This document shows, in pieces, positions 12,057 to 64,000 of a stretch of DNA of 64,000 nucleotides. The notes under the pieces are model-generated. The model made no database searches. It saw only the letters and a program-made list of their open reading frames with translations, and was not told the DNA's origin. A program made the position numbers and the translations under genes. The stretch covers positions 434,001 through 498,000 of the forward strand of contig JABVCE010000017.1 of NCBI GenBank assembly GCA_014905635.1, given 5' to 3'. Within the stretch, counting starts at the first letter, position 1; the number at the start of each line of letters is the position of its first letter. Source of the DNA: Scenedesmus sp. PABB004. Taxonomy: Eukaryota.

Positions 12057-13541
12057 AGACACTCACACTTCGCGTGCGCCCCGCCGCTGTGGCGGCGGCT
12101 GGGCGGGCGGCGGCGCGCCCAGCAGCGGCAGCATCACACGCACGCGTGCGCACCGCGGCGGGGGCGGGGGGGCTTCACTCATTGCCTGCCGCGCTGCCTG
12201 GGCGGATGATCGGTGCGCCGCGCAGGGCGACCGACTGCACTCTCCGCACTGCGAGGAGGGAGCCCCGGCGTGGCTCGTGGCCCCCCTGCGCCGCGCCGCC
12301 GCCGCATTGCGCGGCGCGCCGCGCGCGGGCCTGGCGCCCGCGCGCGCCGCTGCCCTGTTGTGTGTGTGTGTGTGTGTGTGTGGAGAACGCCCCTGAGGCG
12401 CCGCTGACGGGGCTCGATCGCTTGCACTTGACGGCACGGCGCGCCGCACACACGCCCGCGGAGGGAGCCCCGCGCCCGGCCTGAGCGCACCCCGGGCGCG
12501 CCGCCGCCCCGGGGCGGCGCGCGCGTGCACTGCCGTGCTGCCGCCGCCTGGGAACGGGAACGGCGTGGCGGGCGTCCGCGGCGACGGAAGACCCCCGAAC
12601 GGGGAGGCCCTGCTGGCTGGCTCACTGCTTGTGCGGCGGCGCGGGGGCCGCCGGTCGCGGCCGCCCCCGCCGCACCCTGCTCGCGCGCGCGGCGCGGCGC
12701 GATGGCAATGACGTTCATGATGGCACGCCAACACACGCCCGGCGCCGCCGGGCTGCTGATGCTGAGGATGCTGATTCCAAAGCTATGATGCTGAGCACAG
12801 GGGGAGGGAGGGGTTGCCCTGAGTTTGAGTTGTGAGTTTGAGGCGGCGGCGCGGAGTGCGGGGCGCGCGCGCGCGCGCCCCGACGCACTGCCTGCACTGA
12901 CGCACACACACGCACGCACATCACACACTCGCCGCCCGCGCTGCGCTGCCGCTCGCGGCGCGCGGCTCGCCTGACTGCGCTCTCTCTGCTCCCTCGGTCA
13001 TCGCCATCGTTGTCGTGAAGGGATGCCTGCAGCAATCTACTACACTACTACGCCCGAAGACTGCGAAGACTGCGCCGGGGCGTGTCGCGGAACCACTCGC
13101 GTCCGCGCCGCTCTCGTGCTCGGTGGTCGCTGCGCGCGCCGTGCGGCGCGCGCCGCCCGCCCGGGCCCGCCTGGTGGGCCGCTGCGCGCCCCGGCGCCGC
13201 CTCCCTCCAGCCCCGTGCAGTGCCAGCCCGGACCCAGCCACGTCGCCGCACCAGCCAGGCCGGGGGGCCGCGAGCGCCTGGGCCGCGCCGGCCGCCTCAA
13301 CCGCGCCGGCCGCCCAGCTGCCCGCCGCCGCCTCGCCGCCGCTCCTCCACACCCCGGCCGGCTGCCGCCCCGACGACCCCGCGGCGCGCCCGCCCTGCCC
13401 GCCAGCGCGCGGTCCTGCGGCGGTGCCGAGCGACGGCAGCAGCGCCGGGCGCTGCTTCGCTTCCCGCGCCGCCGCAGCCCACCCAGGCCCCGCGGCCCTC
13501 TCCAGCCTTCACCCGCGCCTCCAGCTTGCGATCCACGCGGC

Positions 13542-16279
13542 ATGCGGCCCGAGACGGCGGCCCTGGCGGGCTGGCTGGGCCGCTGCGCGCGCGCGAGCAG
13601 CGTCGACGCGCTCGCGGCGGAGGGCGACGCCGCGGAGGCGCTGCGCGCCTGTTTCGCCGACCTTGTTGACGTCGGCTTGGCCAGGGGCTCGCCTTGCGCC
13701 GACCTGGCCGCGCTGCTGGCCGCCGGCGTGCAGGCGCAGCTGGCGCAGGCCGTGGCCCGCGCGCTGGCGCTGCTGCCGGCGCCGGCGACCCAGGCCGCAG
13801 TGGCGGGCAGCGTCGGCTGTGTCAGCTCGATTGCTGTCCTGTGCCTCATGCTTGAGCGGAGCTTCCGAATCCGCAAGGACCTTGGCGTTCGCGAGGCGGA
13901 GCTGGCGGCCGAGGTGGAGCGCGCGGGTGAGCGGCAGGCAGACGGTGCCTGTCCACACCAGCCGCTGCCTCGCCCATCCCTGACCACGCCGCTGCCGCTG
14001 CGCGCCCGCAGGTGTGCTGCCGCCGCTGGTCGCGGCGTGCGCCGGCGTCGCCGCGGCGCTGGAGGCCGAGGAGCAGCAGCACGAGGAGGAGGAGCAGCAG
14101 CAGCAGCAGCTTCAGCAGGAGCAGCAGCGGCGGCGGCGACGGCGGCGGCAGCATGAGCTCTTCGACTTGAGACGTCTCACTGTGTCAGCGCTTTTGAGGG
14201 CAGCGTACGCTGTCAGCATCGCCTGGCCGCCGCAGGGCCAGCTGGAGGGCCCGCTGCTGCCGCGGACGCAGCCGGTCGCGCGGCTGGTGCTCGCCGTGCT
14301 GCGCTGCGCCGCGACCTGGCGCGCACAGGCCGCCAGCGGTGCCGCTCGCGCGGGGCCGGTGGACGACGCTCTGCTTATGGCACGCACCGCAGCCTGGTGG
14401 ACAGTTCATAACCTGATGCTGGCTCAGAAGCCCGGCCATGTGAGCGGCGAGGCGACCCGGGCGCTGCTGTCAGACCCCGCGGTGCAGCAGCTGCTGCTGG
14501 CCGACCTCGCCCTGCGCGCGGCGCACCGGCACGAGGCGCAGCGCGGCGGGGCGGCGAGCGCTGGCGACGGCGCCGGCGCCGGACCCGGCGCGCCCGCTGC
14601 GCCGGCGGCGCACAACGCGCTGCTGCGCGCGCTGGCGCTGGACGCCGCCGCGGTGCCACAGGGTGAGGACAACGAGGGGCAGGTGGGGTGGAGTGTCGGC
14701 GCGGTTACGGTGCTGTTTGATGTGTCGCCGCCGACCAGCTGCGGCGTCACCAGCAGCGGCCTGCCGGCGGCGGGGGCCGCGGAGCTGGCGGCCGCGGCGG
14801 CGGAGGCGGCGCTGGAGCTGGTGGCGCTGCAGCCAACGCCCCACGCGCTGGCTGCCGGCGCGGTGTGCGCCGGCGCCGTCCTGCGCTGCCTGCGGCCCAG
14901 CCCTGGTGGGGCGCCAGGCGACGACACGGCGGCGGCGGCGGCGGCGGTGGTGCGCACGTTCCTGCCGCTCGCCCGGCCCATCGCCGCCGCGCTGCTGGCG
15001 CCAGACGCTGGCAGCAGCACGGGCAGCGGCCGGGCGGCGGTGGGGCAGGGCGGGGCGCAGCTGGTTGACGCTTGCACTGTTCAGGTCACCCTGCTGCGCT
15101 GCTGCCAGATTCTGCTGCTGAGCAACGGACCAGAGGGTGTGTGGCGCGCAGGAGGCGGCTGGCTTTGGCAGCCGACACCATGCGCTGGCCAGTCCTGCCT
15201 GCGCTTGCTCACGCACTCGCCGCCGCGCCACCGCCGCTGCAGCCGACGCGGTCGTGGCGGCGTTTGCGCAGCAGGACCCCTCCACCCTCTGCCGGCTGCT
15301 GGAGGCGTCCGCCAGGAGCAGGGCGGTCAGGGAGGCGCCGCACGCCGCCCTGGACGCAGCGCAGGTGGTGTGCGGCGCCATCGCCCGGCTCGGCACCAGC
15401 CTGGCAGACGCACCGGTGCTGACGACCGGCGGCGGCGCGGGCCTGCTGCTGCAGCGCGAGGTGTTTGCCTGCCTGCTCACGGCCCTCAAGTGCGCGGCGG
15501 TCGGCGTGGGGCCGGCGGCAGCCGTGCCCAACAGGGTTGAGCAGCTGCGGGGCCTGGCGAACGGGTGCCTGGCGGTGGTGCTAATCGCCTGCGCCGTCGG
15601 CGACGCGGTGGCGCGCGCGCAGCCGGCAGCCGTGGCAGCCGCCGGCGGCCAGCTCGCGTACGAGCCGCCTGCGCTGTGGGCGGTGCTGGCGGCGCGCGGC
15701 CTGGCGGTGCTGGCGCAGGTGCTCAGCGTGGTGCTGGCGACGCAGCCGGCGGCTGGCGCGCCCACCGCGGGTGGCGGGCCTGGCAATTTCGTGCGGCTGG
15801 CATCGGCGGCCTCCGTGCTGGCAGCCCTGCACGACGCGACGGCGCTGCTGGGCGAGCGCCTGCGCGCACTGGGGCCGCTGCCGGCGGACGCCTCGCGCGC
15901 GGGCCTGGAGCGCCTGCTGGCGCAGCAGGAGCTGCTGTGCACGGCGGCGGCGGAGCTGGTCGCGCAGCTGGTCGACGACGGCCAGGCCGACGAGGCCGCC
16001 TGCGTCAGCACGCTGCAGGAGCGCGGCCCCGCGCTGGCCGCGCAGGCGGCGGAGCTGTGCGGCGCGGTGTGCGCCGCGCTGCCGCTGCGCGCGTGCTGCA
16101 ACAACCCGCGCTGCGTCGCGCTGGCAGGCGCGCACAGCAAGCTGGCGGCGGTGGGCGGACGGGCGTGCGCGTGCGGGGGTTGCTTCAAGTCCGCCGCGCC
16201 AGCGCGCTTCTGCAGCCGCGCCTGCCAGGTGGCAGCGTGGCGCGCGCACAAGCCGGTGTGCCGCGCGCTGGCTGCGGGT

Positions 16280-16313
<34 letters not shown>

Positions 16314-16330
16314 GGCGCGAGGCGGCGTGA
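13542..16330 (+). CDS. MYND zinc-finger family protein, copy M1 (3 exons, appears intact)
   Basis: Starts MRPETAALAGWLGRC; introns 13927-14011 and 15137-15242; ends CCNNPRC...CGGC...FCSRACQVAAWRAHKPVC (MYND C/H spacing). Confidence 0.8.
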
Positions 16331-16920
16331 AGGAGGGGCCGAGGCAGGGCGAGGTTGGTGAGGTGCCTTGGCAGGGCGGGGCGACTGGAGGCCCTGTGCG
16401 CACGGACTGCTCGTTGCGGCGGCGACGGCTGTGTGGCTGTGAGTTGCAGCGTTGTGAGGCCTGCGCGCACGGGCAGGCGCCCCCGCCGCCCGCGCTCGGT
16501 GGTCGCCGCCGAGCGCGCTGTGCGGCCGTCGCCGCCCGCCCGGGCCCGCCTGGCGGGCCGCTGCGCGCCCCGGTGCCCCCTCCAGCCAGCCCCTCCACTG
16601 CCAGCCCGGCCCATCCACGCCGCCGCACCAGCCAGGCCGGCGGGCGCGCCCGCCAGGGCCGCGCCGGGCGCCTGAACCGCGCCGGCCGCCCAGCTGCCCG
16701 CCGCCCCGCCGCCACCGCGCCTCCACACCCCGGCCGGCTGCCGCCCCGACGACCCCGCGGTGCGCCCGCCCTGCCCGCCAGCGCGCGGCCCTGCGCCGGC
16801 GCCGAGCGGCGGCCGCGCGCGAGCGCCGACAGCAGCGCCCGCGCCGCGCCGCCGCAGCCCCGCGGCCCCGCCAGCCCTCGCCAGCCCTCACCCGCGCCAC
16901 CAGCTTGCGGTCCACGCAGC
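16331..16920 (+). repeat. Conserved spacer/upstream block of the MYND repeat unit
   Basis: Homologous blocks at about 13090-13541, 24934-25307, 39825-40411(-), 43176-43610(-), 51253-51850(-), 54631-55165(-), partial at 61030-61145, and starting again at 63961. Confidence 0.85.
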
Positions 16921-19660
16921 ATGCGGCCCGAGACGGCGGCCCTGGAGGGCTGGCTGGGCCGCTGCGCGCGCGCGAGCAGCGTCGACGCGCTCGCGGCGGA
17001 GGGCGCCGCTGCGCTGCGGCTGGGCGCCCATTTTGCCGGCTTGATTGAGGAAGCTGAGACCAGGGGCTCGCCCTGCGCCGACCTGGCCGCGCTGCTGGCC
17101 GCCGGCGTGCAGCAGCGGCTCGCGCAGGCCGTGGCCCGCGCGCTGGCGCTGCTGCCGGCGCCGGCGACGCGGGCGGCGGCGGTTGCCAGCAGGGACTTTG
17201 CCTTCACGATCTTTACTCTGTGCGACGCGCTGCAGGGGAGCTTGAGGATCCGCAAGCACTTTGGCGCGCCCGAGGCGGAGCTGACGGCCGTGGTGGAGCG
17301 CGGGGGTGAGCGGCGGCAGGCGGGGCGGCGCCGGTCCGCGCCGGCCGCTGCCTCGCCCATCCCTGATCACGCCGCTGCCGCTGCGCGTCCACAGGCGTGC
17401 TGCCGCCGCTGGCCGCGGCGTGCACTGCCCTCGCCGCGGAGCTGGAGGCCGCGGGCGCCCCGCAGCAGCTGCATCGGCAGGACAGTGGCGAGCTTGCTGA
17501 CCCAAAATGCCTCACTGCGTTAGCGCTCTTGAGGGCGGCGCGTGCCGCCCACAAGGCCTGGCCGCTGCAGGGCCAGCTGGAGGGCCCGCTGCTGCCGCTG
17601 GCGCAGCCGGTCGCGCGGCTGGCGCTCGCCGTGCTGCGCCGCGCCGCCGCCTGGCGCGCACAGGCCGGCGGCGGCTTCACTCAGGCGGCCAAGGGGGTGA
17701 TGTCAGAGGTGCTGTCCTTAGCCTGCACCGCAGCCTCGTCAACAGCTCAGATTCTGGTGCTGGCGCGGCGGCACGGCGGCGGCGCGGCCGAGCAGGACGG
17801 CCTTGTCAGCAACGAGGCGCAGCGGTCGCTGCTGGCGGACCCCGCGGTGCAGCAGCTGCTGCTGGCCGACCTCGCCCTGCGCGCGGCGCACCGGCACAAG
17901 GCCCAGCACGGCCGGCCGTTCAGCGCAGGTGGCGGCGCCGGCGCCGGACCTGGCGCGCCCGCCGTGCCGGCGGCGCACGCCGCGCTGCTGCGCATGCTGG
18001 GGCTGGACGCGTCTGTGGTGCCCGCTGGTGAGGACATGGAGTGGCTGGTGGAGTTCAGCGTCAGCGCGGTTGCGGTGCTGTTTGATGTGTCGCCGCCGGC
18101 CGGCTGCGGCGTCACCAGCAGCGGCCTGCCGGCAGCGGGCGCCGCGGCGCTGGCGGCCGCGGCGGCGGAGGCGGCGCTGGAGCTGGTGGCGCTGCAGCCA
18201 ACACCCCGCCTGCTGGCTGCCGGCGCTTCGTGCGCCGGCAACATCACGCGCGCCATGCGACGCGTCCGCCAGGGCGGTGACACGCAGGGCGACCTGGCGG
18301 CAGCGGAGGCGGCGGTGGTTCGCGCGTTCCTGCCGCTCGCCCGGCCCACTGCCACCGCGCTGCTGGGGGCAGACGCGGGCAGCAGCACGGGCAGCGGCCA
18401 GGCGGCGGCGGGGCAGGGCGGAGCGCAGCCGGTTGCCGCAGCCATTGTTCAAGGCGCCCTGCAGGGCTGCGGTCTGCTGATGCTGTGGCACAACAGAGAG
18501 CAGGGTGCGCCGTGCAGCTGGCTTTGGGAGCAGATGCAACGCGCCCGAGCCAGCCTACGCTTGCTCACGCCCCCGCCGCTGCCGCCGCCGCAGCCGACGC
18601 GGTCGTGGCGGCGTTTGCGCGGCAGGACTCCTCCACCCTGTGCCGGCTGCTGGAGGCGTTTGCCAGGAACTGGGCGGCCAGGGAGGTGCCGCAAGACGCT
18701 CTGACCTCAGCCTACGCACTGTGCAGCACCATCGGGCAATTCAGCCCCAGCCTGACCGGCGCGCCGGCGCTGACGGCGACCGGCGGCGGCGCGGGCCTGC
18801 TGCTGCAGCGCGAGGTGTTTGCCTGCCTGCTCACGGCCCTCAAGTGCGCGGCGGTTGGCGTGGGGCCGGCAGCAGCCGCCCCCGACAGGCATGAGCAGCT
18901 GCGGGGCCTGGCGAGCGGGTGCCTGGCGGCGGTGCGCACCGGCTGTGCCGTCGGCGACGCGGTGGCGCGCGCGCAGCCGGCAGCCGTGGCGGCCGCCGGC
19001 GGCCAGCTCGCGTACGAGCCGCCCGCGCTGTGGGCGGTGCTGGCGGCGCGCGGCCTGGCGGTGCTGGCGCAGCTGCTGAGCCAAGTGCTGGCGGCGCAGC
19101 CGGCGGCTGGCGCGCCCACCGTGGGTGGCGGGCCTGGCAATTTCGTGCGGCTGGCATCGCGGGTCTCCGTGCTGGCGGCCCTGCAGGATGTGGCGGCGCT
19201 GCTGGGCCCGCGCCTGCGTGCGCTGGGGCCGCTGCCGGCGGACGCCTCGCGCGAGTGCTTGGAGCGCCTGCTGGCGCAGCAGGAGCTGCTGTGCACGGCG
19301 GCGGAGGAGCTGGCCGCGCAGCTGGACGACGACGCCTTGGCCGGTGCAGCCGCCTGCGCCAGCACGCCGCAGGAGCACGGCCCCGCGCTGGCCGCGCAGG
19401 CAGCGGAGCTGTGTGGCGCGGTGTGCGCCGCGCTGCCGCTGCGCGCGTGCTGCAACAACCCGCGCTGCGTCGCGCTGGCCGGCGCGCTCAGCGAGCTGGC
19501 GGCGGTGCGCGGCCCGGCTTGCGTGTGCGGGGGGTGCGTCAAGTCGGCCGCGCCCGCATTCTTCTGCAGCCGCGCCTGCCAGGCGGCCGCGTGGCGCGCG
19601 CACAAGCCGGTGTGCCGCGCGCTGGCGGCGGGTGTGGCGGCGGCGGGCGAGGCGGAGTGA
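16921..19660 (+). CDS. MYND zinc-finger family protein, copy M2 (3 exons, appears intact)
   Basis: MRPETAALEGWLGRC start, same two intron positions (about 17307-17394 and 18505-18592), C-terminal MYND finger; direct tandem neighbour of M1. Confidence 0.8.
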
Positions 19661-20276: not shown

Positions 20277-23200
20277 TCACCTGCGCCGGGCCTCGTCCGG
20301 GATGACCTCCACAGTCGCCGGCACCGGCTCCGGCTCGGCGCCCGCGGGCTGGCCCGCCGCGGCGCCGGCGCCGGCGCCGGCGCCGTGCAGCGCGGCCAGG
20401 TCGAGCCCGCCCACCGCCGGCTTGCCGCCGGCGACCGCGACGTTGAGCGTCGGGAGCTGCGGCTTGGGCAGCGACACGTCGGGGACCTGGACGGTCGGGA
20501 TCATGACCGTCGGCAGCGCGACGTCCGGGATCTGGAGCTTGGGCAGCTCCACCGCCGGCAGGCTCGGCAGCGTCAGGTCCGGCAGCTTGGGCAGGCTCGG
20601 CAGCTGCGCCTCGGCGCCCTTGGTCGGCAGCGTCGGCAGCGTGAGGTTGAACCGCACAATGGGCAGCTTGGGCATCTGCGGCGGCGTGTGCGCAAATCAG
20701 GCGGCGGGTCAGGGCGCCGCGCCGCGGGCACGGGCGGGCGCGCAGCTGCACCGCCAGCGCCAGCAGTGCGCCACTGCAAGCAACGCGCCAGTGCACAGCA
20801 ACGCGCCGCAGTGCCAGCTAGCTGTGCGCGCCTGCAGGGGCTTGAAGGCGAAGGGGTTGGGCAGGTCGATGTCGGGGACCGTGAAATTCAGCTTGGGCAT
20901 GGAGAACTTCTTAAACTCCGGCACACGCAGCTCTGCGGCGCGCGAGGCGATTGCAGTCGGTCAGCCGGTCAGCCGGCGCGGGCGGGCGCGCCTGCAGGCC
21001 GTGCCGCCGCAGCGCGGGGAGGCGCGGCCGGTGCCGCCCCGGCCGCCGCCCCGCGCGCGCGGCTGCCGCGCTCCCGCCCTGCCTTCCCTCCCTGCGCTCA
21101 CCCGGGAAGTTCACGACGAGGTTGGGGAACTGGGGGATCTTGGGCAGCAGCGCGCCGACGAGGTTGGTGAGGTCGGGCAGCTGCAGCGGGGGCGGCTTGG
21201 TCACGTCGAGGGAGGGCAGCTCGAAGCGGATCTGCGGGCGCGGGCGGCGCGGCGCAGGGGGCTCCGCGCGTGGGACGCGGCGGCCGCGTGGCCGCCGAGG
21301 CCGCGGCACACACACTCGCCCCGGCGCCGCCCCGGCTGTCCGCGCGCGCGCCCCGCCTGAACCCCGCCTGAGCCTAAACCCACCTGGGGCAGCAGGTCTG
21401 TGACGATGCCGACCAGGTCCTGCGGGGAGAGCGGGTGCGCCGTGGGCAGCACCGCCTCGATCGCGGGCTTGAGCATGGTGGTGATGTTGGCGAGGTAGCC
21501 GGCGCACTGGCGGTACGACGGGCGTTGTTTTGGGTGTTTGAGAAGCGGCGGGGGACGGGGCGGGCGGCGTCAGGGGGCAGGGAGAGCGGGCGGGCGCGGC
21601 GCAGCGCGCTCAGCGCTCAGCACAGCGCGGCGCGCGCGCCTGCTCAAAGGTGGGCAGGTCGGGCAGCGTGAGTGCGGGCTTGTTGAAGTCAATGTCAAAC
21701 GAGATGTGCGGCAGCGCGATGGCCGGCACCAGGCCTAGTGTGGGCGGCGCGCGGCGGCGGCGGTGCAGGGCAAGGCGGGGGTCATGGCTCACCCACGGCC
21801 GTCAGCCCGCGCCCGCCCGCCGCTTCGCGCCGTGGCCGCGGGGCGCCGTCCGCGCTGCGCCGCCGTCCGCGCTGCGCCGCCGTCCGCGCTGCCTGGCCGT
21901 GCAGCGCAGCGCGCGCGGCGTCCGCCCCGCGCCGCACCCGCGAGCGCGGGGAGGTCGATCGGCTTCGGCTTCATAAGCGACGTGATGTTTGCGAGCAGCG
22001 CCATGGGGATGTGGAGGTCGGGGAGCGACACGTTGAGCCCGGGCAGCGCCGGCAGCAGCGCGCAGAGCGGGCCGTGGCACGCGTCGCCGTTGGCGCTGCC
22101 GTTGGCGCCGCCCTTGCCGGACAGCAGGCCGGCGAAGAGGCCGAGCTTGGAGCCCAGGAGGTGGGACTTGAGGTCAAAGCTCGGCAGCGCGGGCAGCACG
22201 GGGCTCGGGCCCGGCCCGCCGTCGCAGTCGCAGACCGTCCACAGGCCGCTCACATACTCCCCGCTCGCGCTCGGCAGGCCGGGCTTGGTGAGCGGGAGGT
22301 GCAGCGGGCCGGGCAGGTTGACGGTCTCCAGGCACGGCATGCCTGGTGGACGGGCGGCGCGGCGGGACGGCGGGCGGGACGGCGCGGGCGGCGGAGCGCG
22401 TGACCAGGCGGTGGCGTGCGGCGTGGCCAGGCGGCGGCGGAGCGCGGCGGCGTGGCGGCGGCGCGTCGTCGCATCGTCGCGTCGCGGCGGCCCGCACCGA
22501 GGTACTGCTTTGCCTGGTCGTCGACGTCGTCGCCGGCCGCGACGACGGTGCCGACGCAGTTCCCGCCGAGGAGGTGGCTCTTGCACCCGGGCACGGCGAG
22601 CTTGCACGCGAGGTCGCGGCACTTGTTGAGCAGACCAAAGGGCCCGTCGTTCTTGGCGTAGCAGATGAAGTCGAGGGCCATGACATCAGAGCCGAGGCCG
22701 TTGAGCTTGCAGAGCGGCAGCTTGCACTTGCCGCTGCTCACGCAGCACCCGCCGGCGCACTCGGGCGCGGTGAACGGCGCCACGACAGGGCAGAAGCCCC
22801 GCGCGCCCTCGGCCGCGTCGGCGCTGCACATCGACGGCGCGGCGGGGCACGCCGCGGGCGGCGGCGGCGCGACCGGCGCGGCGGGCGCGGGCGCGGCCGG
22901 CGCCTCGGGCTCGTCGGGCTTGGGCACGGGCTCCGCCGGCGGCGCGACGGTCGGGCAGTCCTCCATGGCCCAGACCATGCGGAAGTTCTGCAGGCCCGCC
23001 TGCACCTGCGCGCCGACGCCAGCCCGGGCGGCGGCAGGGGGGGGGGGGCGTCGGCGGCGTGTCGGCTGCAGGGCGGCGCGCGCTGCTCCCTCTCCCCGTC
23101 CCCCGCGCGCTCCACCCGGCCGGCCACGCCCGGCGCCCGCCTTCGCTCCCCGCTGGCTCCGGGCCGGGCCGCCGCGACCTTGAGCCCTTAAACCTCAGTA

Positions 23201-24219
23201 CCCCTAAACCCCGCCGCACCTGCTGGCCGTCGACGGTCGTGAGGTCGTGCTCGCCCTTGAATGCGGCAAACCAGGAGCCCTTCGGCGCGATGACCGTCGC
23301 GCCCTCGGACGTGGACTTGGCGTTTCCAAAGACGAGCGTGTTGCCCTTGCTGGTGGTGAGCTTGACGAACTCGACGCACCTGCCGGCCGGGCCGGGCCGG
23401 GTCGGCGGGCGGCGTGTCGGCGGCGGGCGGCGGCGCCGCAGCTGCGGGGCCGGCGGCCGAGGCCGCGCCGCGATGCGCGAGCGCGCGAGGAAGGGAGGGG
23501 CGGGGGGCGGGGGGCCTCTCACTTGTTGGGCGCCTGGCGCACGTCGACGCGGATGAGGTGCTCGCCCTCGGTGAGGGCCAGGTCCTGGGTGTAGAGGTTC
23601 TTGGTGTGACCGAGCAGCGCGGTCGCGCCGCCGCCGTCGCCGGCGCCGTACGTTGCGCGGATGCCCTGCAGGCAGCCGAAGTTCCAGGAATAGAAGAGCT
23701 CCACCTTGGTGAGCCAGCCGTTGGCCTGCCAGACCTCAGTCTGGTCGACCTGGGCCATGGGCTTGGTCTCGCCGACGATGCCAAACGGACCCGTCTCGCC
23801 CACCACCACATCCGTGCATCCATCGCGCCAGGCTGCGAGTCGCGCGCGGGGGCGTGTCAGGTGCGCGATCGCGCCGCGCGGGGGCGGGCGGGGCGCGGGG
23901 GCGGGCGGGGAGGCGGCAGCAGTACGGAGCGGATGGCCGGCCGGCGAATTCTCCCCGGCTGCTCAGCGCCCTGCGCTGCGGCGCGGCCTGACGCCACAAC
24001 TTGCGCTGCTTCGACACAATCGCACGCCAGCTGCAAGCTGATCGCCCCCTCGCGCCCGCGCGCCTCGGCTGCGCTTGCGAGCTGGCCGCGTGTCGCCCTC
24101 TGCGCCCCGCACTGGCCGCGCCAGCCAGTGCTGTTGATGGGCAACGATCACTGGCGCTCACCTGCCGCGCAGCCGGCGAGTAGCAGCACCAGGGCCGCGC
24201 TGGCGAGCGCCCTCGCCAT
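20277..24219 (-). CDS. Secreted protein: jacalin-like lectin domain, Pro-rich linker, Cys-rich region, LPxLx repeat tail (multi-exon)
   Basis: Signal peptide MARALASAALVLLLAGCAA; beta-prism-like motifs LQGIRATYG, LTEGEHLIRVDV, VEFVKLTTSKGNTLVFG, FAAFKG; many Cys; tail LPSLPKLPDLTLPSLPAVELPKLQIPDV. The last TGA overlaps a possible AG|GTGAG donor, so the 3' end is uncertain. Confidence 0.7.
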
Positions 24220-24739
24220 CGCGCCTGCCCCCTGTCGAGATAGGCGCACAGCAAGGGCGGCGCTGTGTTCTGAGAGCACCTGAACGGCGCAGCGAGCACA
24301 CCGTGAGCCAGGCGCGGGCCAAGGGGTGCCTGGCGGGGCAAACCAACTCAACGAACGAGCGAGGTCAAAAGGCCCGCACCTGCTGGGCACGCGTGTGGGC
24401 TGGCAGGTGGTCGGTTGGTTGCGGACGAGGTCGATCGCGAGCTGGGTGTGGCTGCGGCGGAGCGGGGGCGCACCGTTAAGCGAGGCCACGCGGAGTGACA
24501 CTGAGCTCGAGGAAACTGCTGGCCGGCTGGGGACGGCCGCGCCTGTTCACACAGCGCCCGGCACGGCGCGCCCACGCACAATCGCGCGCGCATCGCATCG
24601 CGCCGGGCGGCGCCCTGCGGCGGGCGGCGAGCCGAGCTGCGGCCGCGAGTCGGCGCTGGTCCCGCCGTCCCGCGCGCGCCGCCGCGCAGGCCCGTGCTGG
24701 GCGTGCTGGCATGCGCATGGGTTGAGGGGGAGCTCATCA

Positions 24740-24933
24740 AGAGCTGGCAGGCACGCACACACAGCGAGCTGGCGGCGGTGCGCGGGTTGGCGTGTGCGAG
24801 CTGCGCCAAGTCGGCCGCGCCCGCGCGCTTCTGCAGCCACAGCTGCCAGGCGGCCGCGTGGCGCGCGCACAAGCCGGTGTGCCGCGCGCTGGCCGCAAGT
24901 GTGGCGGCGGCGGCGGCGCGCGAGGCGGGGTGA
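24740..24933 (+). pseudogene. Isolated 3' fragment of the MYND gene (M3a)
   Basis: HSELAAVRGLACASCAKSAAPARFCSHSCQAAAWRAHKPVC...stop, with no upstream exons, followed by the family spacer. Confidence 0.75.
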
Positions 24934-25305
24934 GGAGTGAAGGAGGGGCCAAGGCAGGGCGAGCTTGGTGAGGTGCCTTTGCAGGGTGGGGGCGGCCGCA
25001 GGCCCCGTGCACGTGGAGTGCTTGCTGTGAGCGACGGCTGTGCGCTTGTGTGAGTTGCAGCGTTGTGAGCGCCGCGCGCACGGCCGGGCGCACCCGCCGC
25101 CCGCGCTCGATTGTTGTCGCCGCGCGCGCTGTGCGGCCGTCGCCGCCCGCCCGGGCCCGCCTGGCGGGCCGCTGCGTGCCCCGGCGCCGCCTCCAGCCAG
25201 CCTCTCCAGTGCCAGCCTGACCCAGTCGCGCTGGCGCACCAGCCAGGCCGGCTGGGGGCGAGCGCCAGGGCCGCGCCGGCCGCCTGAACCGCGCCGGCCG
25301 CCCAG

Positions 25306-26334
25306 CTCTGCCGGCTGCTGGAGGCGTCCGCCAGGAGCCTCCAGCAGGAGCCTCATGAGCAGGGCCGTATCGCAGGCTGCCCTGACCAAAGCCCGCGCAG
25401 TGTGCGACGCCATCGCCCGGCTCGGCCCCAGCCTGGCCGACGCGCCGGCGCTGACGGCGACCGGCGGCGGCGCGGGCCTGCTGCTGCAGCGCGAGGTGTC
25501 TGCCTGCCTGCTCACGGCCCTCAAGTGCGCAGCGGCGGGTGCGCCGCTCGCAGCGGCCGAGGCCGGCCGGCTTCAGCAGCTACGGGTCCTGGCGAGCGGG
25601 TGCCTGGCGGTGGTGCGCGCCGGCTGCGCCATCGGTGACGCTGTGGCGCATGCGCAGCCGGCAGCCGCGGCGGCCGCGGGCGGCCAGCTCGCGTACGAGC
25701 CGCCCGCGCTGTGGGCGGTGCTGGCGGCGCGCGGCCTGGCGGTGCTGGCGCAGCTGCTCGGCAAGGCGCTGGCGGCGCAGCCGGCGGTCGGTGCGGGCGC
25801 GCCAGTTGTCAGCGGCGAGCCTGGTGAGCTGGTGCTGCTGGCAGCTGCCGCCGCCGTGCTGGCGGCCCTGAGCAACACAGCGCCGCTGGGCCCGCGCCTG
25901 CGCGCGCTGGGCCCGCTGCCGGCAGACCCCTCGCGCACGGTCCTGGAGCGCCTGCTGGCGCAGCAGGACCAGCTGTGCACGGCGGCGGAGGAGCTGGCCG
26001 CGCAGCTGGACGACGACGTCCAGGCCGACGCAGCCGCCTGCGTCAGCATTCTGCAGGAGCGCGGCCCCGTGCTGGCCGTGCAGGCGCCGGAGCTGTGCGG
26101 CGCGGTGTGCGCCGCGCTGCCGCTGCGCGCGTGCAGCAACAACCGGGCTGCACAGCGCTGGCCGGCGCCCACAGCGAGCTGGCGGCGGTGCGCGGGCCGG
26201 CGTGCGTGTGCGGGGGGTGCGTCAAGTCGGCCGCGCCCGCATTTTTCTGCAGCCGCGCCTGCCAGGCGGCCGCGTGGCGCGCGCACAAGCCGGTGTGCCG
26301 CGCGCTGGCCGCTGCAGCGGGCGGCGCGCAGTGA
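25306..26334 (+). pseudogene. Truncated MYND gene (M3b): exon 3 only, fused to the spacer
   Basis: The spacer jumps at CCCAGCT/CTGCCGGCTG directly into exon-3 sequence (LCRLLEASAR); 1-nt frameshift at aacaaccggg near 26147; TGTAA at 26361. Confidence 0.75.
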
Positions 26335-28009: not shown

Positions 28010-28040
<31 letters not shown>

Positions 28041-28741: not shown

Positions 28742-28774
<33 letters not shown>

Positions 28775-33088: not shown

Positions 33089-33120
<32 letters not shown>

Positions 33121-36261: not shown

Positions 36262-36295
<34 letters not shown>

Positions 36296-45114: not shown

Positions 45115-45436
45115 TCAGTCCGAGACGGTCTCATACGTGACGGGGAAGAGCCCGACAGCGTTGGCGGGCGACAGGTACGTGAGCGTCGCGCTGAGCTGCT
45201 GCCCGGCGACCGCGTTCCACGTGCGGATGAGCGCCGTGCGCTTCGGCCCCGCCGGCAGCACGGGCAGCGCCCGGCCGGCGAACGCGCGCCAGTCGGCGAC
45301 GGCGTCGCCGTTGTACACGAACAGGGTGCTGCCGGCAAAGTTGGGGAAGGTCGTCGGCGCGCGGCGCGCGCACGTCCCGTTCTCTGCGCATTGGCGCACG
45401 GCGGGCGCGGCGCGGGTGCGGCGCGCGAGTGAGGGT

Positions 45437-45467
<31 letters not shown>

Positions 45468-51252: not shown

Positions 51253-51901
51253 GCTGCCTGGGCCACAGACTTGCGGCGCCGGCGAGGGTTGGCGAGGGCT
51301 GGCGGGGCCTGGGTGGGCCAGGGCGGCGCGGGGCTGGGAACGGGCGCTGCTGTCGGCGCTCGCGCGCGGCCGCCGCTCGGCACCGCCGCAGGGCCGCGCG
51401 CTGGCGGGCAGGGCGGGCGCGCCGCGGGGTCGTCGGGGCGGCAGCCGGCCGGGGTGTGGAGACGCGGCGGCGGCGGGGCGGCGGGCAGCTGGGCGGCCGG
51501 CGCGGTTCAGGCGGCCCGCGCGGTTCAGGCGGCCCGCGCGGCCCTCGCGCTCGCGCCGCCCGCCGCCCTGGCTGGTGCGGCGGCGTGGCTGGGTCGGGGT
51601 GGCACTGGAGGGGCTGGCTGGAGGCGGCGCCGGGGCGCGCAGCGGCCCCGCCAGGCGGGCCCGGGCGGGCGGGGCGCGCCGCACAGCGCGCGCAGCGGCG
51701 TCGGCAGAGCGGTGCCCGCCGCCAGCTGATGCGCGCGCAGTCCGCGCAAACTCACAGGCCTGCACGCCCAAACCGGTGACCCTCGGCCAGCGAGCAGGCG
51801 CACACACCGCAAACCGCCGCCCGGCCCCGCGACGCGGCATGGGCCCCTAGAGCGGCGGTCACTCCTGGGGGCCATCTCGCCTCACTCCGCCTCACTCCGC
51901 C

Positions 51902-54630
51902 TCACTCCGCCTCGCGCGCTGCCGCCGCCGCCGCCGCCACACCCGCGGCCAGCGCGCGGAACACCGGCTCGTGCGCGCGCCACGCAGCCTTTTGGCAGGC
52001 GCGGCTGCAAAAGCGCGCAGGCGTGGCCGACTTGCCGCAGCCCGCGCACGCGCACGCCGGGCCGCGCACCGCCGCCAGCTCGCTGTGCGCGCCTGCCAGC
52101 GCGACGCAGCGCGGGTTGTTGCAGCACGCGCGCAGCGGCAGCGCGGCGCACACGGCGGCGCACAGCTCCTCCGCCTGCGCGGCCAGCGCGGGGCCGCGCT
52201 CCTGCAGCGTGCTGACGCGGGCGGCTGCGCCGGCCTGGGCGTCGTCGCCCAGCTGCGCGGCCAGCTCCGCCGCCGCCGTGTGCAGCTGCTCCTGCTGCGC
52301 CAGCAGGCGCTCCAGCCCCGCGCGCGAGGGGTCCGCCGGCAGCGGCCCCAGCGCGCGCAGGCGCGGGGTCAGCAGCGCCGCCGCGTCGTGCAGGGCCGCT
52401 AGCACGGCGACGGCAGTTGCCAGCCGCGCAGGCTCGCCAGGCCCGCCACCACCAGCTGGTGCAACAGACGCCGGCCAAGCCGCCAGCGCCTTGCTGAACA
52501 GCTGCGCCAGCACCGTCAAGCTGCGCGCCGTCAGCACCGCCCACAGCGCGGGCGACTCGTACGCGAGCTGGCCGCCGGCGGCCGCCGCGGCTGCCGGCTG
52601 CGCGCGCACCACCGCGTCGCCGATGGCGCAGCCGGCGCGCACCACCGCCAGGCAGCCGCTCGCCAGGTCCCATAACTGCTCATCGCGGCCAGGGCCGGCT
52701 GCTGCCGGCCCCACACCGACCGCCGCGCACTTCAGCGTGGTGAGCAGGCAGGCAAACACCTCGCGCTGCAGCCGCAGGCCCGCGGCGCCGCCGGCCGCCG
52801 TCAGCGCCGGCGCGGCTGCCAGGCTGGGCCCGAGCCGCCCAATGGAGCCGCGCAGTGCGTGTGCTGTGTCCAGAGCGACCTGCGCCATCTCCCTGCCCGC
52901 CAAGCTCCTTTCGGACGCCTCCAGCAGCCGGCACAGGGTGTAGGGGTCCTGCCGCACGAACGCCTCCAGCGCCGCGTCGGCTGCGGCGGTGGCGGCGGCG
53001 GCGGTGAGGGCGTGCGCAAGCCCAGGCAGGCCGGGCCGGCGGGCTGCGTAGCTGCCCAAAGCCAGCTGCCGCCACACACCCTGCGCTCTGTTGCTCCCCT
53101 CACACAGCAGCAGACCGCAGCTCTGTAGGGCGCCGTGAGCAGTGGCTGCGTCGACCGGCGGCGCTTGCGCCCCGCCCTGCCCCGCCGCCGCCGGCCTGGT
53201 CCCTGTGCTGCTGCCGGCGTCCGCCCCCATCAGCGCGGCGGCGGTGGGCCGGGCGAGCGGCAGGAACGCGCACACCACCGCCGCCGCCGCGTCGTCACCG
53301 TGCGCCGCACCGCCCGGGGCTGCTTCCCTCAGGTGGTGCATGATGCTGCCGGCGCACGAAGCGCCAGCAGCCAGCGCGAGGGGCGTCGGCTGCAGCGCCA
53401 CCAGCTCCAGCGCCGCCTCCGCGACCGCGGCCGCCAGCCCCGCACCGCCCGCTGTGGTCGGGCCAGCGCTGCCACTGCCGGCGATGCCAGCTCCGCAGCT
53501 GGTCGGCGGTGAGACCTCAAACAGCATGCCGACCGCATGGACGCTGTCCTCCAGCAGCATCTCTCTCTGCTCTACGCGGGGCACCGCAGCGGCGTCCAGC
53601 CCCAGCACGCGTAGCAGCGCGGCGTGCGCCGCCGGCACGGCGGGCGCGCCAGGGCCGGCGCCGCTGCCGCTGCCAACGGCCGGCCGCGCTGCGCCTTGTG
53701 CAGGTGCGCCGCGTGCAGGGCGAGGTTGGCCAGCAGCAGCTGCTGCACCGCGGGATCCGCCAGCAGCGCACGCTCCGCCCTTCCGCTCACGCGGCGATAC
53801 CGCCGCGCCAGCAGCACGCTCTGAGCCGTCCCCTGTGCTGTGACGCGGGATAACGACAGCACGTCCTCCACCAAGTCCGACGGTATCAAGCCGCCACCGG
53901 CCTGTGCGCGCCAGGCCCCGGCGCGGCGCAGCGCCGCGAGCGCCAGCCGCACGTCGTGCTGCGCCAGCGCCAGCAGCGGGCCCTCCAGCTGGGCCTGTGC
54001 CGGCCACGCGATGTGCGCAGTGCGTGCCACCACCAGCAGCGCTGCTGCTGTGAGGCACTCCAGTTGAGACTGCGCGCCGCTGGCCTGCCGCTGGCGCTGC
54101 TGCGAGGCCTCCAGCGTCGCGGCGTGAGCGGTGCACGCCGCGGCCAGCGGCGGCAGCATGCCTGCGGGTGCGCAGCGGCGGCGGCCCGGTCAGGGACGGG
54201 CGCAGCAGCTGCAGGCGCGGACCGCCGCCCGCCGCTCACCCGCGCGCTCCAGCTCGGCCGCCAGCTCCGCGTCGGGCGCGCCAAAGGTCTTGCGGATGAA
54301 ACAGCTGCTCTGCAGCAGGGGGCACAGGGCAAAGAGCGTGCCGACAAAGTCCGCGCTGCCCGCCGCCGCCGCCCGCGTCGCCGGCGCCGCCAGCAGCGAC
54401 AGCGCGCACGCCACGGCCTGCGCGAGCCGCCGCTGCACGCTCGCGGCCAGCAGCGCGCCCAGGTCGGCGCAGGGCGAGCCCCTGGCCCCTGCCTGTTGAA
54501 TCAGGCCGCCAAGATAGGTGCGCAGCGAATCCGCGGCGGCGCCCTCCGCCTCCGCCGCGAGCGCGCCGACGCTGCTCGCGCGTGCGCAGCGGCCCAGCAG
54601 GCCCGCCAGGGCCGCGGTCTCGGGCCGCAT
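51902..54630 (-). CDS. MYND zinc-finger family protein, copy M6 (one frame break near 53680)
   Basis: MRPETAALAGLLGRC start; the finger ends HEPVF instead of HKPVC (last Zn ligand lost), so it may be degenerating. Confidence 0.6.
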
Positions 54631-55159
54631 GCTGCACCGCGGTGCAGGACGGCGGCGCTGGTGAAGGCTGGCGAGGGCGGGCGGGGCCACGGCGGCGGCG
54701 GGGGCGCTGCTGTTTTCGCTCGCGCGGGGTCTGGCGGGCAGGGCGGGCGCGCCGCGGGGTCGTCGGGGCGGCAGCCCGGCCGGGGTGTGGAGGCGCGGCG
54801 GCGGGGCGGCGGGCAGCTGGGCGGCCGGCGCGGTTCAGGCGGCCGGCGCGGCCCTCGCGCTCGCGCCTCGCCGGCCTGGCTGGCTGGTGAGCCGGCGTGG
54901 CTGGTCGGCCTGGCACTGGAGGGGCTGGCTGGAGGCGGCGCCGGGGCGCGCAGCGGCCCGCCAGGCGGGCCCGCCAGGCGGGCGGCGCGTGCCGCACAGC
55001 GCGCGCAGCGGCGTCGGCAGAGGCGGCCGCCGGCTCACGCGCGCGCAGTCCGCGCAAACTCACAGGCCTGCACGCCCAAACCGGTTACCCTCGGCCAGCG
55101 AGCAGGCGCGCGCGCCGCAAACCGCCGCCCGGCCCCGCAACACGGCATCGGCACCGGCC

Positions 55160-60400: not shown

Positions 60401-60681
60401 GCGCGCGCGCGCTCACGGCGCCCGCACCGCCGCTGCCGCCGCGCGACCTGCGGCGGCGCGCCGCGCAGAAGAGCGACGTGGAGGTGTTTTTCGAGGACGT
60501 GGAGCGCCCGCCCGGCCTGCCGCGCGCGAGCCCCGCGGGCGGCGGCGCCGGGGGCGGCGCCGCGGGCGGCGCGGGCGGCGGCGGCGGCGCGCCGGGCGCG
60601 CCCGGCGGCGGCGTCGCCGGCGCCGCGGCCGGCGGCGGCGCGCCGGGCGGCGCGCCGGGCGGCGGCGCGCTGCGGCAGTGA
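57447..60681 (+). CDS. NOT2: CCR4-NOT complex subunit 2 (NOT2/VIP2-like)
   Basis: FSQDEFPALG, FSIQNDSDFPALGG, YGLLGLLHVIRM...LALGTDLTGLGLNLN, NOT box ETLFYIFYSMPQ|DEAQLIAADELCARGWWWHK. Confidence 0.93.
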
Positions 60682-61145
60682 CACGACGCGGCGGCACGGG
60701 CGGAGGGAGGGGGATCGGGCGGGGCGGGGCTATGGCGTGCGTTGCGCTCCTCTCCTGATCCCTGCCGAGGGCAGGCCTGGCGCACGCAGCAGCTGAGCCT
60801 TGGGGGCGGGCGGGCGGGCGGGCGGCGCGCGTTGACTACGTTCGGGAGCGGCGGCGGGCAGGGGGCAGAGGGCGGGGGGCGGGCGGGGGGGGGGCGGCGG
60901 ACGGGGGCGCGCGGGCAACAACTGAGCCTCCCGCCGCCGTGCCCGCGGTTTGGCGGCCGCGCCCCGCGTCAGCCGCCGGCAGCCCCGTGTCCCCTCCCCC
61001 TGGCCACCGTCGCTCCCGCCCACCCGCAGTCAAGAGCAGCCGCCGGGCGCGAGCGGCGAGCAGCTGCTGCTCCGCCCCGCGCCGCCGCGCGCCGCCGCGG
61101 CCCCTCCAGCCCTCGCCAGCGCCTCCGGCCTGCGGCCCAGGCAAC

Positions 61146-63960
61146 ATGCGGCCCGAGACGGCAGCGCTGGCGGGCTGGCTGGGCCGCTGCGCGCGCGCGA
61201 GCAGCGTCGGCGCGCTCGCGGCGGAGAGCGCGGCCGCGGAGTCACTGATGGACTTTTTCGCCGGCCTGGTTGAAGACGCGAGGGCCAGGGGCTCGCCCTG
61301 CGCCGACCTGCGCGCGCTGCTGGCCGCGGGCGTGCAGGCGCGGCTGGCGCAGGCCGTGGCCCGCGCGCTGGGGCTGCTGTCGGCGCCGGCGACGCGGGCG
61401 GCGGCGGCGGGCAGCGGGGGCTGTGCCCGCACGATTCAAACTCTGTGCGACATGCTGGATGGAAGCTTTCGCACCCGCAAGGGCCTGGGCGCGCCCGACG
61501 CGGAGCTGGCGGCCGAGCTGGAGCGCGCGGGTGAGCGGCGGCGGCAGGCGGGCGGCGGTCCGCGCCTGCAGCTGCTGCGCCCGTCCCTGACCGGGCCGCC
61601 GCCGCTGCGCACCCGCAGGCATGCTGCCGCCGCTGGCAGCGGCGTGCACCGCTCACGCCGCGACGCTGGAGGCCTCGCAGCAGCGCCAGCGGCAGGCCAG
61701 CGGCGCGCAGTCTTGACCTGGAGTGCCTCACAGCAGCAGCACTGCTGGTGGCGGCACGCACAGCGCACATCACGTGGCCGGCACAGGCCCAGCTGGAGGG
61801 CCCGCTGCTGGCGCTGGCGCAGCACGACGTGCGGCTGGCGCTCGCGGCGCTGCGCCGCGCCGGGGCCTGGCGCGCACAGGCCGGTGGCGGCTTGATACCG
61901 TCGGACTTGGTGGAGGACGTGCTGTCGTTATCCCGCGTCACAGCACAGGGGACGGCTCAGAGCGTGCTGCTGGCGCGGCGGTATCGCCGCGTGAGCGGAA
62001 GGGCGGAGCGGGCGCTGCTGGCGGACCCCGCGGTGCAGCAGCTGCTGGCCAACCTCGCCCTGCACGCGGCGCACCTGCGCAAGGCGCAGCGCAGCCGGCC
62101 GGCTGGCGTTGGCAGCGGCAGCGGCGCCGGCCCTGGCGCGTCCGCCGTGCCGGCGGCGCACGTCGCGCTGCTGCGCGCGCTGGCGCTGGACGCCGCCGCG
62201 GTGCCTCAGGGTGGGGACGATGAGCAGCTGGTGGAGGTGAGCATCCACGCGGTTACGACGCTGTTTCAGGTGTCGCCACCGACCAGCTGCGGAGCCGGCA
62301 TCGCCGGCGGCAGCGGCTCCGGCGGCGGCAGCAGCGTGCCGCAGGCGGGCGGCGCGGAGCTGGCGGCCGCGGCGGCCGAGGTGGCGCTGGAGCTGGTGGC
62401 ACTGCAGCCGACGCCCCGAGCGCTGGCTGCCGGCGCGGTGTGCACCAGCGACGTCCTGCTCTGCCTCCGGCTTGCCCCGTTTGCTGGGGCGCGGGACCAG
62501 GCGGCTGCGGCAGCGGCGGTCGTGCGCGCATTCCTGCCGCTCGCCCGGCCCACCGCCGCCGTGCTGCTGGGGGCAGACGCTGGCAGCAGCACGGGCCGCG
62601 GCCAGGCGGCGGCGGGGCGGGGTGGGGTGCACGTGCACCCGGTCGACGCAGCCACTGCTCAGCTCACCCTGCAGCGCAGTGGCGTGCTCCTGTTGAGCAA
62701 CGGACCGGCGGGTGCGAGGCATGCTGGCGGCGGCTGGCCTTGGCAGCTGGCGCTGCACGCTGGCCCAGCCTGCGCTTGCTCACGCTGCCCCCGCCGCTGC
62801 AAACGCTCCTGCCACCGCCGCGCAGCCGACACGGCGCTGGCGGCGTTCGCACGGCAGGACCCCTCCACCCTGTGCCGGCTGCTGGAGGCGTCCGCCAGGA
62901 GCTTGGCGGGCAGGGAGATGGCGCAGGTCGCTCTGGACACAGCACACGCACTGCGCGGCTCCATTGGGCGGCTCGGGCCCAGCCTAGCAGCTGCACCGGC
63001 GCTGACGGCGACCGGCGGCGGCGCGGGCCTGCTGCTGCAGCGCGAGGTGTTTGCCTGCCTGCTCACGGCCCTCAAGTGCGTGGCGGTCGGCGTGGGGCCG
63101 GCGGCAGCCGCCGCCCCTGACCGCGATGACCAGCTGCGGGGCCTGGCGAGCGGGTGCCTGGCAGCGGTGCGTGCCGGCTGCGCCGTCGGCGACGCGTGGC
63201 GCGCGCGCAGCCGGAAGCTGTGGCAGCTGCTGGCGGCCAGCTCGCGTACGAGCCGCCCGCGCTGTGGGCGGTGCTGGCGGCGCGCAGCTTGACGGTGCTG
63301 GGGCAGGTGCTCAGCGTGGCGCTGGCGGCGCCACAGCTGGCAGCCGGCGCGAACATCGCCGCCAGTGCCGGCACGCCAGGCGAGCTGACGCCGATGGTGA
63401 CTGTGGTCTCCGTGCTGGCAGCCCTGGGCAACGCGGCGGCGCTGCTGGGCGAGCGCCTGCGAGCGCTGGGGCCGCTGCCGGCAGACCCCTCGCGCACGAG
63501 TCTGGAGCGTCTGCTGGCGCAGCAGGAGCTGCTGTGCACGGCGGCGGAGGAGCTGACTGCGCAGCTGGGCGACGACGCCCAGGCCGACGCAACCGCCTGC
63601 GTCAGCACGCTGCAGGAGCGCGGCCCCGCGCTGGCCGCGCAGGCGGAGGAGCTGTGCGCCGCGGTGTGCGCCGCGCTGCCGTTGCGCGCGTGCTGCAACA
63701 ACCCGCGCTGCGTCGCGCTGGCAGGCGCGCACAGCGAGCTGGCGGCGGTGCGCGGCCCGGCGTGCGCGTGCGCGGGCTGCGTCAAGTCGGCCGCGCCCGC
63801 GTTCTTCTGCAGCCGCGCCTGCCAGGCGGCCGCGTGGCGCGCGCACAAGCCGGTGTGCCGCGCGCTGGCCGCGGGCGTGGCGGCGGCGGCGGCGGCGGCG
63901 GCGCGCGAGGCGGAGTGGAGTGAGGCGGGAGGGGAGGGGCGGGGCAGCGAGGAGGGGTGA
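61146..63960 (+). CDS. MYND zinc-finger family protein, copy M7 (frame breaks near 61715 and 63196; possible pseudogene)
   Basis: MRPETAALAGWLGRC start, conserved introns, intact MYND finger; the family spacer resumes at 63961. Confidence 0.6.
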
Positions 63961-64000
63961 GCTCAGTGAGGTGCCTTGGCAGGGCGGGGCGGCCGCAGCT

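Follow-up and report, generated by a model that had tools for sequence, protein, structure and literature searches.

The stretch of DNA considered here, 64,000 nucleotides of Scenedesmus sp. PABB004 referred to below as the window, corresponds to positions 434,001–498,000 of contig C10 in an assembly of 40 Mb and 80 contigs and carries repeated copies of a gene for an Ala/Leu-rich protein of about 850 amino acids (aa) that ends in a MYND finger. Self-BLAST, tblastn, and splice-site alignment resolve six long units, present in both orientations, and two fragments; together they account for 21,558 bp or 33.7% of the window, which bears out the claim of a first-pass annotation that six full copies and two fragments make up about a third of it. 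What is new here is that conserved and variable blocks alternate helix by helix along the predicted protein, with a one-sided hypervariable stripe on the variable helices—a pattern reminiscent of recognition genes caught in an arms race.

Family copies within the window

The long units are 78.5–85% identical to one another over 2.9–3.9 kb, which in self-BLAST lies well over the GC-driven background of a window composed of 74–84% G+C. A first tandem pair is found on the forward strand. A non-coding upstream block (U block; 13099–13541, delimited by self-BLAST and probably comprising promoter and 5′-untranslated sequence) precedes the copy c1 (13542–16330; exons 13542–13926, 14012–15136, and 15243–16330), which encodes an intact protein of 865 aa with its MYND finger at about 16095–16265 in exon 3. 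The tandem junction (16331–16920) consists of the 3′ tail of c1 and the U block of c2, and is followed by c2 itself (16921–19660; exons 16921–17305, 17395–18504, and 18594–19660; intact, 853 aa). The first-pass annotation had proposed a 3-exon gene for an Ala/Leu-rich MYND protein of this size; exons and finger stand, but only c1 and c2 of the six units have intact frames, c3–c6 being frameshifted. Further along the forward strand, fragment A (24743–25307) runs from the MYND-coding end of a copy through its tail into the first part of the following U block, while fragment B (25306–26326) comprises exon 3 alone and is 92.7% identical to exon 3 of c4. Both had been described as separate fragments; they are present but abut, and are read here as a single tandem pair with an internal deletion.

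The reverse strand carries c3 (40412–43175; frameshifts in exons 2 and 3) with its U block (43176–43607). Behind c3 lies an orphan U block (about 39822–40248, wider extent 39790–40248, reverse strand), a direct repeat with 83% identity to c3's own U block. It stops ~30 nt short of the apparent ATG of a short-chain dehydrogenase gene, transcription of which may now be driven from this family-derived sequence. Next on the same strand are c4 (48525–51252; frameshift in exon 3), which has a 144-column identical tract in common with a copy just past the window edge, a spacer (51253–51901) made up of a U block and sequence duplicated from the 3′ end of the adjoining kinase gene, and c5 (51902–54630; frameshift in exon 2), which has a 225-column identical tract in common with the inverted copy c6. 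The U block of c5 (54631–55155) is located immediately behind the stop codon of the kinase gene, which is of the AAA type. Finally, c6 with a shortened U block of 112 bp occupies 61034–63960 of the forward strand (the gene itself 61146–63960; frameshifts in exons 2 and 3) and opens a tandem pair; the second member, L012, is intact (872 aa) and is located immediately past the window. The conserved upstream block claimed for the unit is confirmed at about 440 bp among the closer-related copies only; elsewhere it is 100–300 bp long or undetected. The hexamer TGAACC, a candidate promoter element, occurs in 13 of 24 upstream regions of the family at −161 to −275 from the start codon.

Assembly or haplotype duplicates could be ruled out as the source of the copies, which are 73–87% identical across the genome. 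Sequencing error was likewise rejected as the sole cause of the frameshifts: the lesion in the MYND region of c4 must be real because the same lesion is present in fragment B. The other frameshifts, including one at a G run in c3, could be sequencing errors. The neighbours in the window are ordinary genes—RRM, formin, short-chain dehydrogenase, AAA-type kinase, and NOT2/3/5, with matches for 8 of 29 pieces—and, together with self-BLAST, they uphold the description of tandem pairs and singletons placed in both orientations between unrelated genes.

Gene structure and distribution across the genome

At least 24 near-full copies were found in the genome, 10 of the 24 being intact with products of 836–885 aa that contain about 26% Ala and 14% Leu. 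Eighteen of the 24 are situated between 413 and 772 kb of the 796-kb contig C10, the end of which carries a TTTAGGG telomere, and the remaining six reside singly on C2, C5, C8, C12, C25, and C46. This telomere, the intron-rich genes, and the nearest named proteins, which their source labels Scenedesmus, agree with a placement among the scenedesmacean green algae. Identity among the C10 copies drops with distance (Spearman −0.70; 0 of 2000 permutations), in agreement with the local proliferation proposed at first sight, and their tree separates a proximal from a distal group. The gene consists of three exons and two introns of 77–124 nt. GT/AG dinucleotides are kept at three junctions in all 24 copies, the second donor and the start codon in 23 each; the copy on C25 is one of the 10 intact genes, yet it has a non-canonical donor. 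As suspected from the outset, the retention of introns speaks for DNA-based copying.

Outside the window, too, the copies adjoin ordinary genes such as PsbY, beta-amylase, TAF13, PEPCK, IPK1, and ribosomal L19 (24 of 30 pieces, taken from 105 predicted, gave a match). Public gene models (P0001–P0005) join family copies to neighbours, namely aspartate carbamoyltransferase, a carrier plus a cyclase, ceramide synthase plus a radical SAM protein, lactone oxidase, and Sas10. These fusions look like annotation artefacts, since the copy at L014 has its own stop codon.

Spread of copies and gene conversion

Intact paralogs occur beside dead ones, duplications differ in age, and conversion tracts are present; with 10 of 24 copies intact, the family fits the birth-and-death mode proposed for it. 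Identical tracts of 331, 225, and 144 columns were detected in three of 276 pairs, two of the three being inverted, and a pairwise homoplasy index (PHI)-like recombination test gave 3/200. Fragment B and c4 agree over ~660 nt except for two substitutions and one small gap. Eight of the 24 copies are arranged in tandem pairs. The copies have no shared ends: homology stops at different points from copy to copy and sometimes takes in the ends of host genes; c4 and c5, for example, both contain sequence that stems from the region around the stop codon of the kinase gene. Flanking direct repeats of 148–420 bp accompany 4 of 16 non-tandem copies; in three of these cases the repeats consist of tail or upstream-block sequence of the family itself, and in one (on C12) of other sequence.

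Plant F-box/NLR-type families are described as transposing as single genes with flanking direct repeats, and for transposed F-box and LRR genes a recombination out of tandem duplicates followed by reinsertion has been proposed (PMC2869330). The present family resembles these plant genes in its tandem duplication, its dispersal among unrelated genes, its retained introns, and its flanking direct repeats, so that the spread of its copies would be matched by the same tandem-duplicate recombination and reinsertion.

Alternatively, the gene might travel as cargo of a non-autonomous mobile element of the Helitron-, Replitron- or Penelope-like kind whose enzyme is encoded elsewhere. Tandem units and terminal redundancy, the latter of variable extent, would be in keeping with this, as would a reverse-transcriptase open reading frame (ORF) at L023 (144–3242, forward; non-LTR type, RVT_1 E 1.7e-26) that converges on the 3′ end of the C5 copy. 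However, it adjoins just one of 18 loci screened and lies on the opposite strand, and the ends of homology vary between copies. The first-pass annotation had seen neither a mobility gene in the unit nor inverted repeats, and both observations hold: the unit contains no mobility gene, and the five longest inverted repeats in each of five regions proved to be unconvincing, chance-like GC-rich arms of 70–83%. Simple screens revealed no hammerhead core in 48 flanks and no shared CTRR position, and Rfam gave 0 matches in the window. A mobile element of this kind is considered very unlikely.

Predicted protein architecture

The exon-3 product matches the Pfam family zf-MYND (PF01753) with E-values of 2.8e-5 and 3.9e-5 (24.5 and 24.0 bits against a curated cut-off of 22.7). 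All eight Cys/His zinc ligands are complete in each of the 10 intact proteins, and the Gln and Trp of the CQxxxW motif, which we take to be peptide-pocket residues of the finger, are invariant in 17 of 17 exon-3 sequences. MYND fingers bind PxLxP-type motifs. Exons 1–2 returned no Pfam match in four queries, and in particular no Arm, F-box, NB-ARC, LRR or OPR/RAP-type family.

Exons 2 and 3 of c2 were modelled separately with AlphaFold2. The exon-2 model is all helix, with a predicted local distance difference test (pLDDT) score of 81 and a predicted template modelling (pTM) score of 0.84. Its best solved matches, spanning the whole model (residues 1–369), are mostly armadillo (ARM)-type solenoids: KAP3 (Z 12.2; root-mean-square deviation 3.7, 215 aligned residues), APC (Z 11.1), CNOT9 (Z 10.9), and beta-catenin (Z 10.6). 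We read these scores as reflecting a general ARM-like arrangement in the model rather than descent. The exon-3 model (pLDDT 74, pTM 0.78) features long helices followed by a poorly modelled finger, with pLDDT values below 50 at residues 296–320; its structural matches by the VIA search are mostly designed helical bundles. A sequence search of the PDB yielded weak MYND/C6H2 matches only (E 0.08–0.33). The predicted protein is thus an ARM-like alpha-solenoid (exon 2) joined to a long-helix bundle (exon 3) and a C-terminal MYND finger. By eye, the first part of exon 2 shows a pattern like a BC box, but the relatives lack it and the idea was dropped.

Alternation of conserved and variable helices

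The alternation of conserved blocks with highly variable segments that had been noticed in the DNA maps onto alternate predicted helices. Conserved and variable helices take turns over residues 131 to 778, and positions occupied by six or more different residues number 0–2 in conserved and 3–13 in variable helices. Within the variable helices, changes are one-sided, variability peaking at a periodicity of 100 degrees (15.9 versus about 5), and the resulting hypervariable stripe is richer in polar residues (S, R, D, Q, T, H, and N). In c2 numbering, residues 95, 98, 102, 233, 236, 237, 345, 349, 356, 482, 485, and 489 are among the hypervariable positions. In 14 relatives from other sources, inspection by eye suggests the same helix alternation.

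Divergence at these sites exceeds what silent positions accumulate nearby. In a split-half test, in which sites were chosen in one half of the copies and measured in the other, second codon positions of hypervariable sites differed by 0.54 (0.51–0.57), whereas the conserved codons of these segments differed by 0.30 at their four-fold sites. Close pairs make the point directly. The variable helices of the C10 copies 629 and 642 differ at 27.8% of bases while their introns match at 87 of 92 and 113 of 114 positions, and those of C10 copies 597 and 601 differ at 24% next to an 889-bp upstream flank that is 96% identical; in close pairs overall, variable helices are 24–28% different and introns and flanks 1–12%. 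The MYND finger and the N-terminus are under purifying selection, with window ratios of 0.31–0.49.

Two mutational explanations were rejected. Silent differences are higher in variable than in conserved segments (0.30 versus 0.14), and so is the A+T content of silent sites (22% versus 5%, host exons having 3%), which brought to mind a targeted local hypermutation of the variable helices. This is ruled out because the rates of silent singletons (0.53 per column in variable helices versus 0.51) and their A/T share are equal and the excess is confined to older shared variants (0.39 versus 0.17). Shuffling from a small pool of fixed cassettes is ruled out as well, given that a neighbour at ≥97% identity exists for just 4 of the 163 sequences of variable helices. 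The pattern instead fits peaks of divergence kept by selection against interlocus conversion, a situation described in PMC3924837.

Several observations weigh against adaptive diversification of a recognition surface. The whole-gene ratio of nonsynonymous to synonymous substitution (dN/dS) is 0.84 (0.67–1.04, 45 pairs), and silent sites are strongly GC-constrained (97% G+C in host exons), which inflates even this value. Over whole variable helices, the proportion of nonsynonymous differences (pN) exceeds the local proportion of synonymous ones (pS) in none of six pairs, and in one pair pS is significantly higher. A codon-grid test gave twice the log-likelihood difference (2dL) of 194, and of 53 for the conserved half, under a single silent rate; with free silent rates the 194 falls to 11.4, near the 8.9 of the conserved half; moreover, recombination can inflate tests of this type. 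Fourteen of the 24 copies look broken. On the structural side, the Z-scores of the exon-2 fold remain under ~13, the level that the tool regards as meaningful for helical repeats, and Foldseek found no match at E ≤ 0.001 for the exon-2 or exon-3 model.

Much of this would also be expected if constraint had simply been relaxed, with exposed helix faces drifting, conversion smoothing the rest, and tandem duplication alone keeping the family. A whole-gene dN/dS of 0.84, many broken copies, pN and pS values that are about equal when variable helices are taken as a whole, and a weak grid test with free silent rates are all compatible with such a scenario, and a periodicity of 100 degrees is to be expected of any helical protein. 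However, when introns and flanks of the same close pairs are taken for comparison, the variable helices are 2 to 9 times more divergent even though introns and flanks are the less constrained; moreover, the rate of silent singletons is the same, and the finger and N-terminus are not free to drift. The formal selection tests are mixed, but the contrast between variable helices and introns or flanks in close pairs does not appear to be explained by relaxed constraint alone, to which we assign a low probability.

Relation to a chlorophyte MYND superfamily

The family is not the stand-alone cassette that it first seemed to be. By sequence comparison, the copies are one sub-family of a large, uncharacterised chlorophyte MYND superfamily. 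A profile of exon 3 matches 923 clusters (at the 50% identity level) with E ≤ 0.001, and 194 with E ≤ 1e-10, the matches running mostly through the finger and the helices preceding it. In the ESM Atlas, the nearest neighbours of the family are chlorophyte clusters named ‘phytol kinase’ that carry PF01753 only (score 0.93, 28 of 30 matches); the best cluster lacking a MYND domain scores 0.79, a lead only. The chlorophyte proteins listed as ‘phytol kinase’ or ‘MYND-type domain-containing protein’ (PF01753) have, like the present copies, a helical body of 800–1300 aa and a common extended C-terminal finger, CNNPxC...G.SE...C..C...[YF]C...CQ...W..HKPVC. They differ from the present sub-family in that the latter is specific to one genome at the DNA level and its body has diverged too far for detection with single sequences.

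A profile built from 16 distant full-length relatives reaches proteins of Tetradesmus obliquus (P0182) and Chlamydomonas incerta (P0183). The finger profile aligns with the superfamily at an hhalign probability of 99.7% (E 5e-27). For the MYND-free body, a global profile comparison extended over 596 columns with 63.9% (E 8.8e-6) and included three colinear local matches, the reversed control giving 0.1%; exon 2 alone scored 1.6%, and single-sequence comparisons of the body produced no signal in 38 proteins. Homology between the MYND-free body and that of the superfamily is thus moderately supported on sequence grounds.

The name ‘phytol kinase’ is unsupported. The phytol kinase VTE5 is defined by a membrane cytidylyltransferase-type kinase domain, whereas six exon queries of the present family gave MYND-type families only and the proteins have no multi-pass hydropathy.

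Within the same genome, at least 61 MYND matches were counted. Local MYND gene clusters other than that on C10 are seen at 25–218 kb of C8, at 223 and 257 kb of C46, and at 1.57–1.71 Mb of C24. On C8 and C46, nine ORFs are distant matches to the exon-3 profile (E 5e-28 to 5e-10), and therefore other sub-families have local clusters of their own; three MYND loci fetched from the C24 cluster gave no match to the exon-3 profile.

The existence of the superfamily is already known, and its way of evolving is a known one. MYND expansions in green algae are mentioned only in passing in PMC8226300 and PMC7955037, and an expansion in a diatom in PMC8991070. A survey of the literature on MYND proteins in green algae, with subscription journals largely outside its coverage, found no study of the family or its function and no description of a solenoid-MYND layout with helix-alternating diversification. 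Algal genome papers thus note MYND expansions without explaining them, and in databases the family is masked by the name ‘phytol kinase’ or by fused models.

A variable-specificity adaptor as working model

A constant finger attached to a solenoid with one diversified face is, in the models, the layout of a variable-specificity adaptor. The stripes of successive variable helices would line up into a single binding surface, varying from copy to copy, with which changing protein targets would be recognised; these would most plausibly be foreign proteins, for instance of viruses, parasites or transposons. Through a PxLxP-type motif, the constant MYND finger would dock a fixed host partner, so that the target could be handed to a repressor or a ubiquitin ligase. 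The copies are seen to originate by tandem duplication at breakpoints that vary, to trade conversion tracts, and frequently to decay. Single copies would move by recombination out of tandem units via circle formation or template switching; conversion would keep the conserved helices alike, while selection would keep the binding helices apart. The evolutionary part of this explanation is held with considerable confidence. The whole reading—birth-and-death host genes for adaptors of variable specificity that recognise foreign proteins—is put forward tentatively, its chance being somewhat short of even. As regards the defence or recognition role suggested by the first-pass annotation, recognition gains support from the one-sided hypervariable stripe on alternate solenoid helices.

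The working model is borrowed from Mub1, which likewise combines a structured body with a MYND finger as an adaptor between targets and a fixed machine. Mub1 is single-copy and conserved, unlike the present family. The comparison concerns this layout, and no Mub1 sequence was among the search matches. In yeast, Mub1 brings substrates to the E3 ligase Ubr2 (PMC12505455), and this hand-over is the one envisaged here. Plant F-box/NLR-type families, in turn, offer a parallel for a constant docking module combined with a variable recognition surface; in contrast to them, the present proteins have no detectable F-box, NB-ARC or LRR, and their variable surface is helical.

The same stripe might read nucleic acid instead. 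In this case, the family would consist of sequence-specific RNA- or DNA-binding helical-repeat proteins akin to NCL or PUF/PPR proteins, with the MYND finger recruiting an effector. OPR/RAP-type domains are those of NCL proteins, and NCL proteins are not known to carry a MYND finger. A green-algal precedent does exist in Chlamydomonas, where NCL forms a species-specific local cluster of at least 32 fast-diversifying genes for RNA-binding proteins (PMC8226300), and S. pombe Mub1 interacts with Rrp6 (PMC12505455). The polar residues enriched in the stripe would suit such a role. On the other hand, no OPR/RAP-type or other Pfam repeat family is detected in exons 1–2, helix lengths are irregular with 5–13 variable residues each rather than a two-residue code, the conserved N-terminus seems unlike a transit peptide, and the top fold matches are protein-binding ARM proteins. 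Nucleic-acid binding is accordingly judged quite unlikely.

Selfish behaviour has to be weighed as well. In a poison–antidote or self/non-self system like the wtf meiotic drivers of Schizosaccharomyces, matched toxic and neutralising products, or the killing of sister spores or non-kin, would be at work, and the variable helices would set the matching. The wtf genes comprise about 25 copies, many of them pseudogenes; their upstream region is conserved, some segments diverge, conversion takes place between non-allelic copies, and direct repeats flank the genes (PMC11497594). All of these features recur here; the same genomic pattern, however, fits immune-type families. The wtf proteins are multi-transmembrane and made as two isoforms, whereas the present proteins are predicted to be soluble solenoid-MYND proteins: the best 19-residue hydropathy of 1.8–2.2 in the 10 intact proteins reveals no multi-transmembrane character. 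Furthermore, an upstream ATG is absent within 450 nt in 14 of 24 copies, and the superfamily, with its 923 clusters, is old and widespread. We regard a drive or kin-killing function as unlikely.

Intracellular recognition of viruses, parasites or kin in green algae is largely an open field. Should the stripe of the proposed adaptors be a binding surface engaged in an arms race, the family would provide a concrete candidate repertoire of 10 intact paralogs that combine an unchanging docking finger with specificity positions already mapped. Leaving function aside, the locus is a clear illustration of how divergence peaks are maintained in the face of gene conversion, repeated in register with the helices of the protein. 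A broader conjecture, which we consider doubtful, is that chlorophycean algae may possess a large undescribed repertoire of diversified intracellular solenoid-MYND recognition proteins—a counterpart of plant NLR/F-box arsenals or of matched killer–antidote genes. In each lineage, this repertoire would be renewed as genes hop locally and copies convert one another.

Neighbouring genes and further observations

Two genes for probably secreted proteins lie between the copies in the window, both on the reverse strand. The multi-exon gene at 20292–24220 encodes a protein whose N-terminal part looks lectin-like by eye and which also has a segment rich in Cys and a long tail rich in Leu and Pro, with no Pfam match in four pieces. 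The product of the gene at 45118–47684 contains a CVDxR...GGD motif, which we take to be reminiscent of carbonic anhydrases, and gave no Pfam match in four pieces plus the first exon. Pro/Ala-rich internal repeats within the formin gene (31700–32470) are consistent with an FH1 region.

At four-fold sites of the family, C-to-T changes affect 0.43–0.74 of CpG columns as compared to 0.25–0.29 elsewhere, an excess that suggests CpG methylation of the copies. A 28-bp tandem repeat, found by chance with the CNNPxC pattern, occurs at 525–549 kb of C17 and 2.5–27 kb of C54 in blocks ~12 kb apart, which are possibly part of a large repeated unit.

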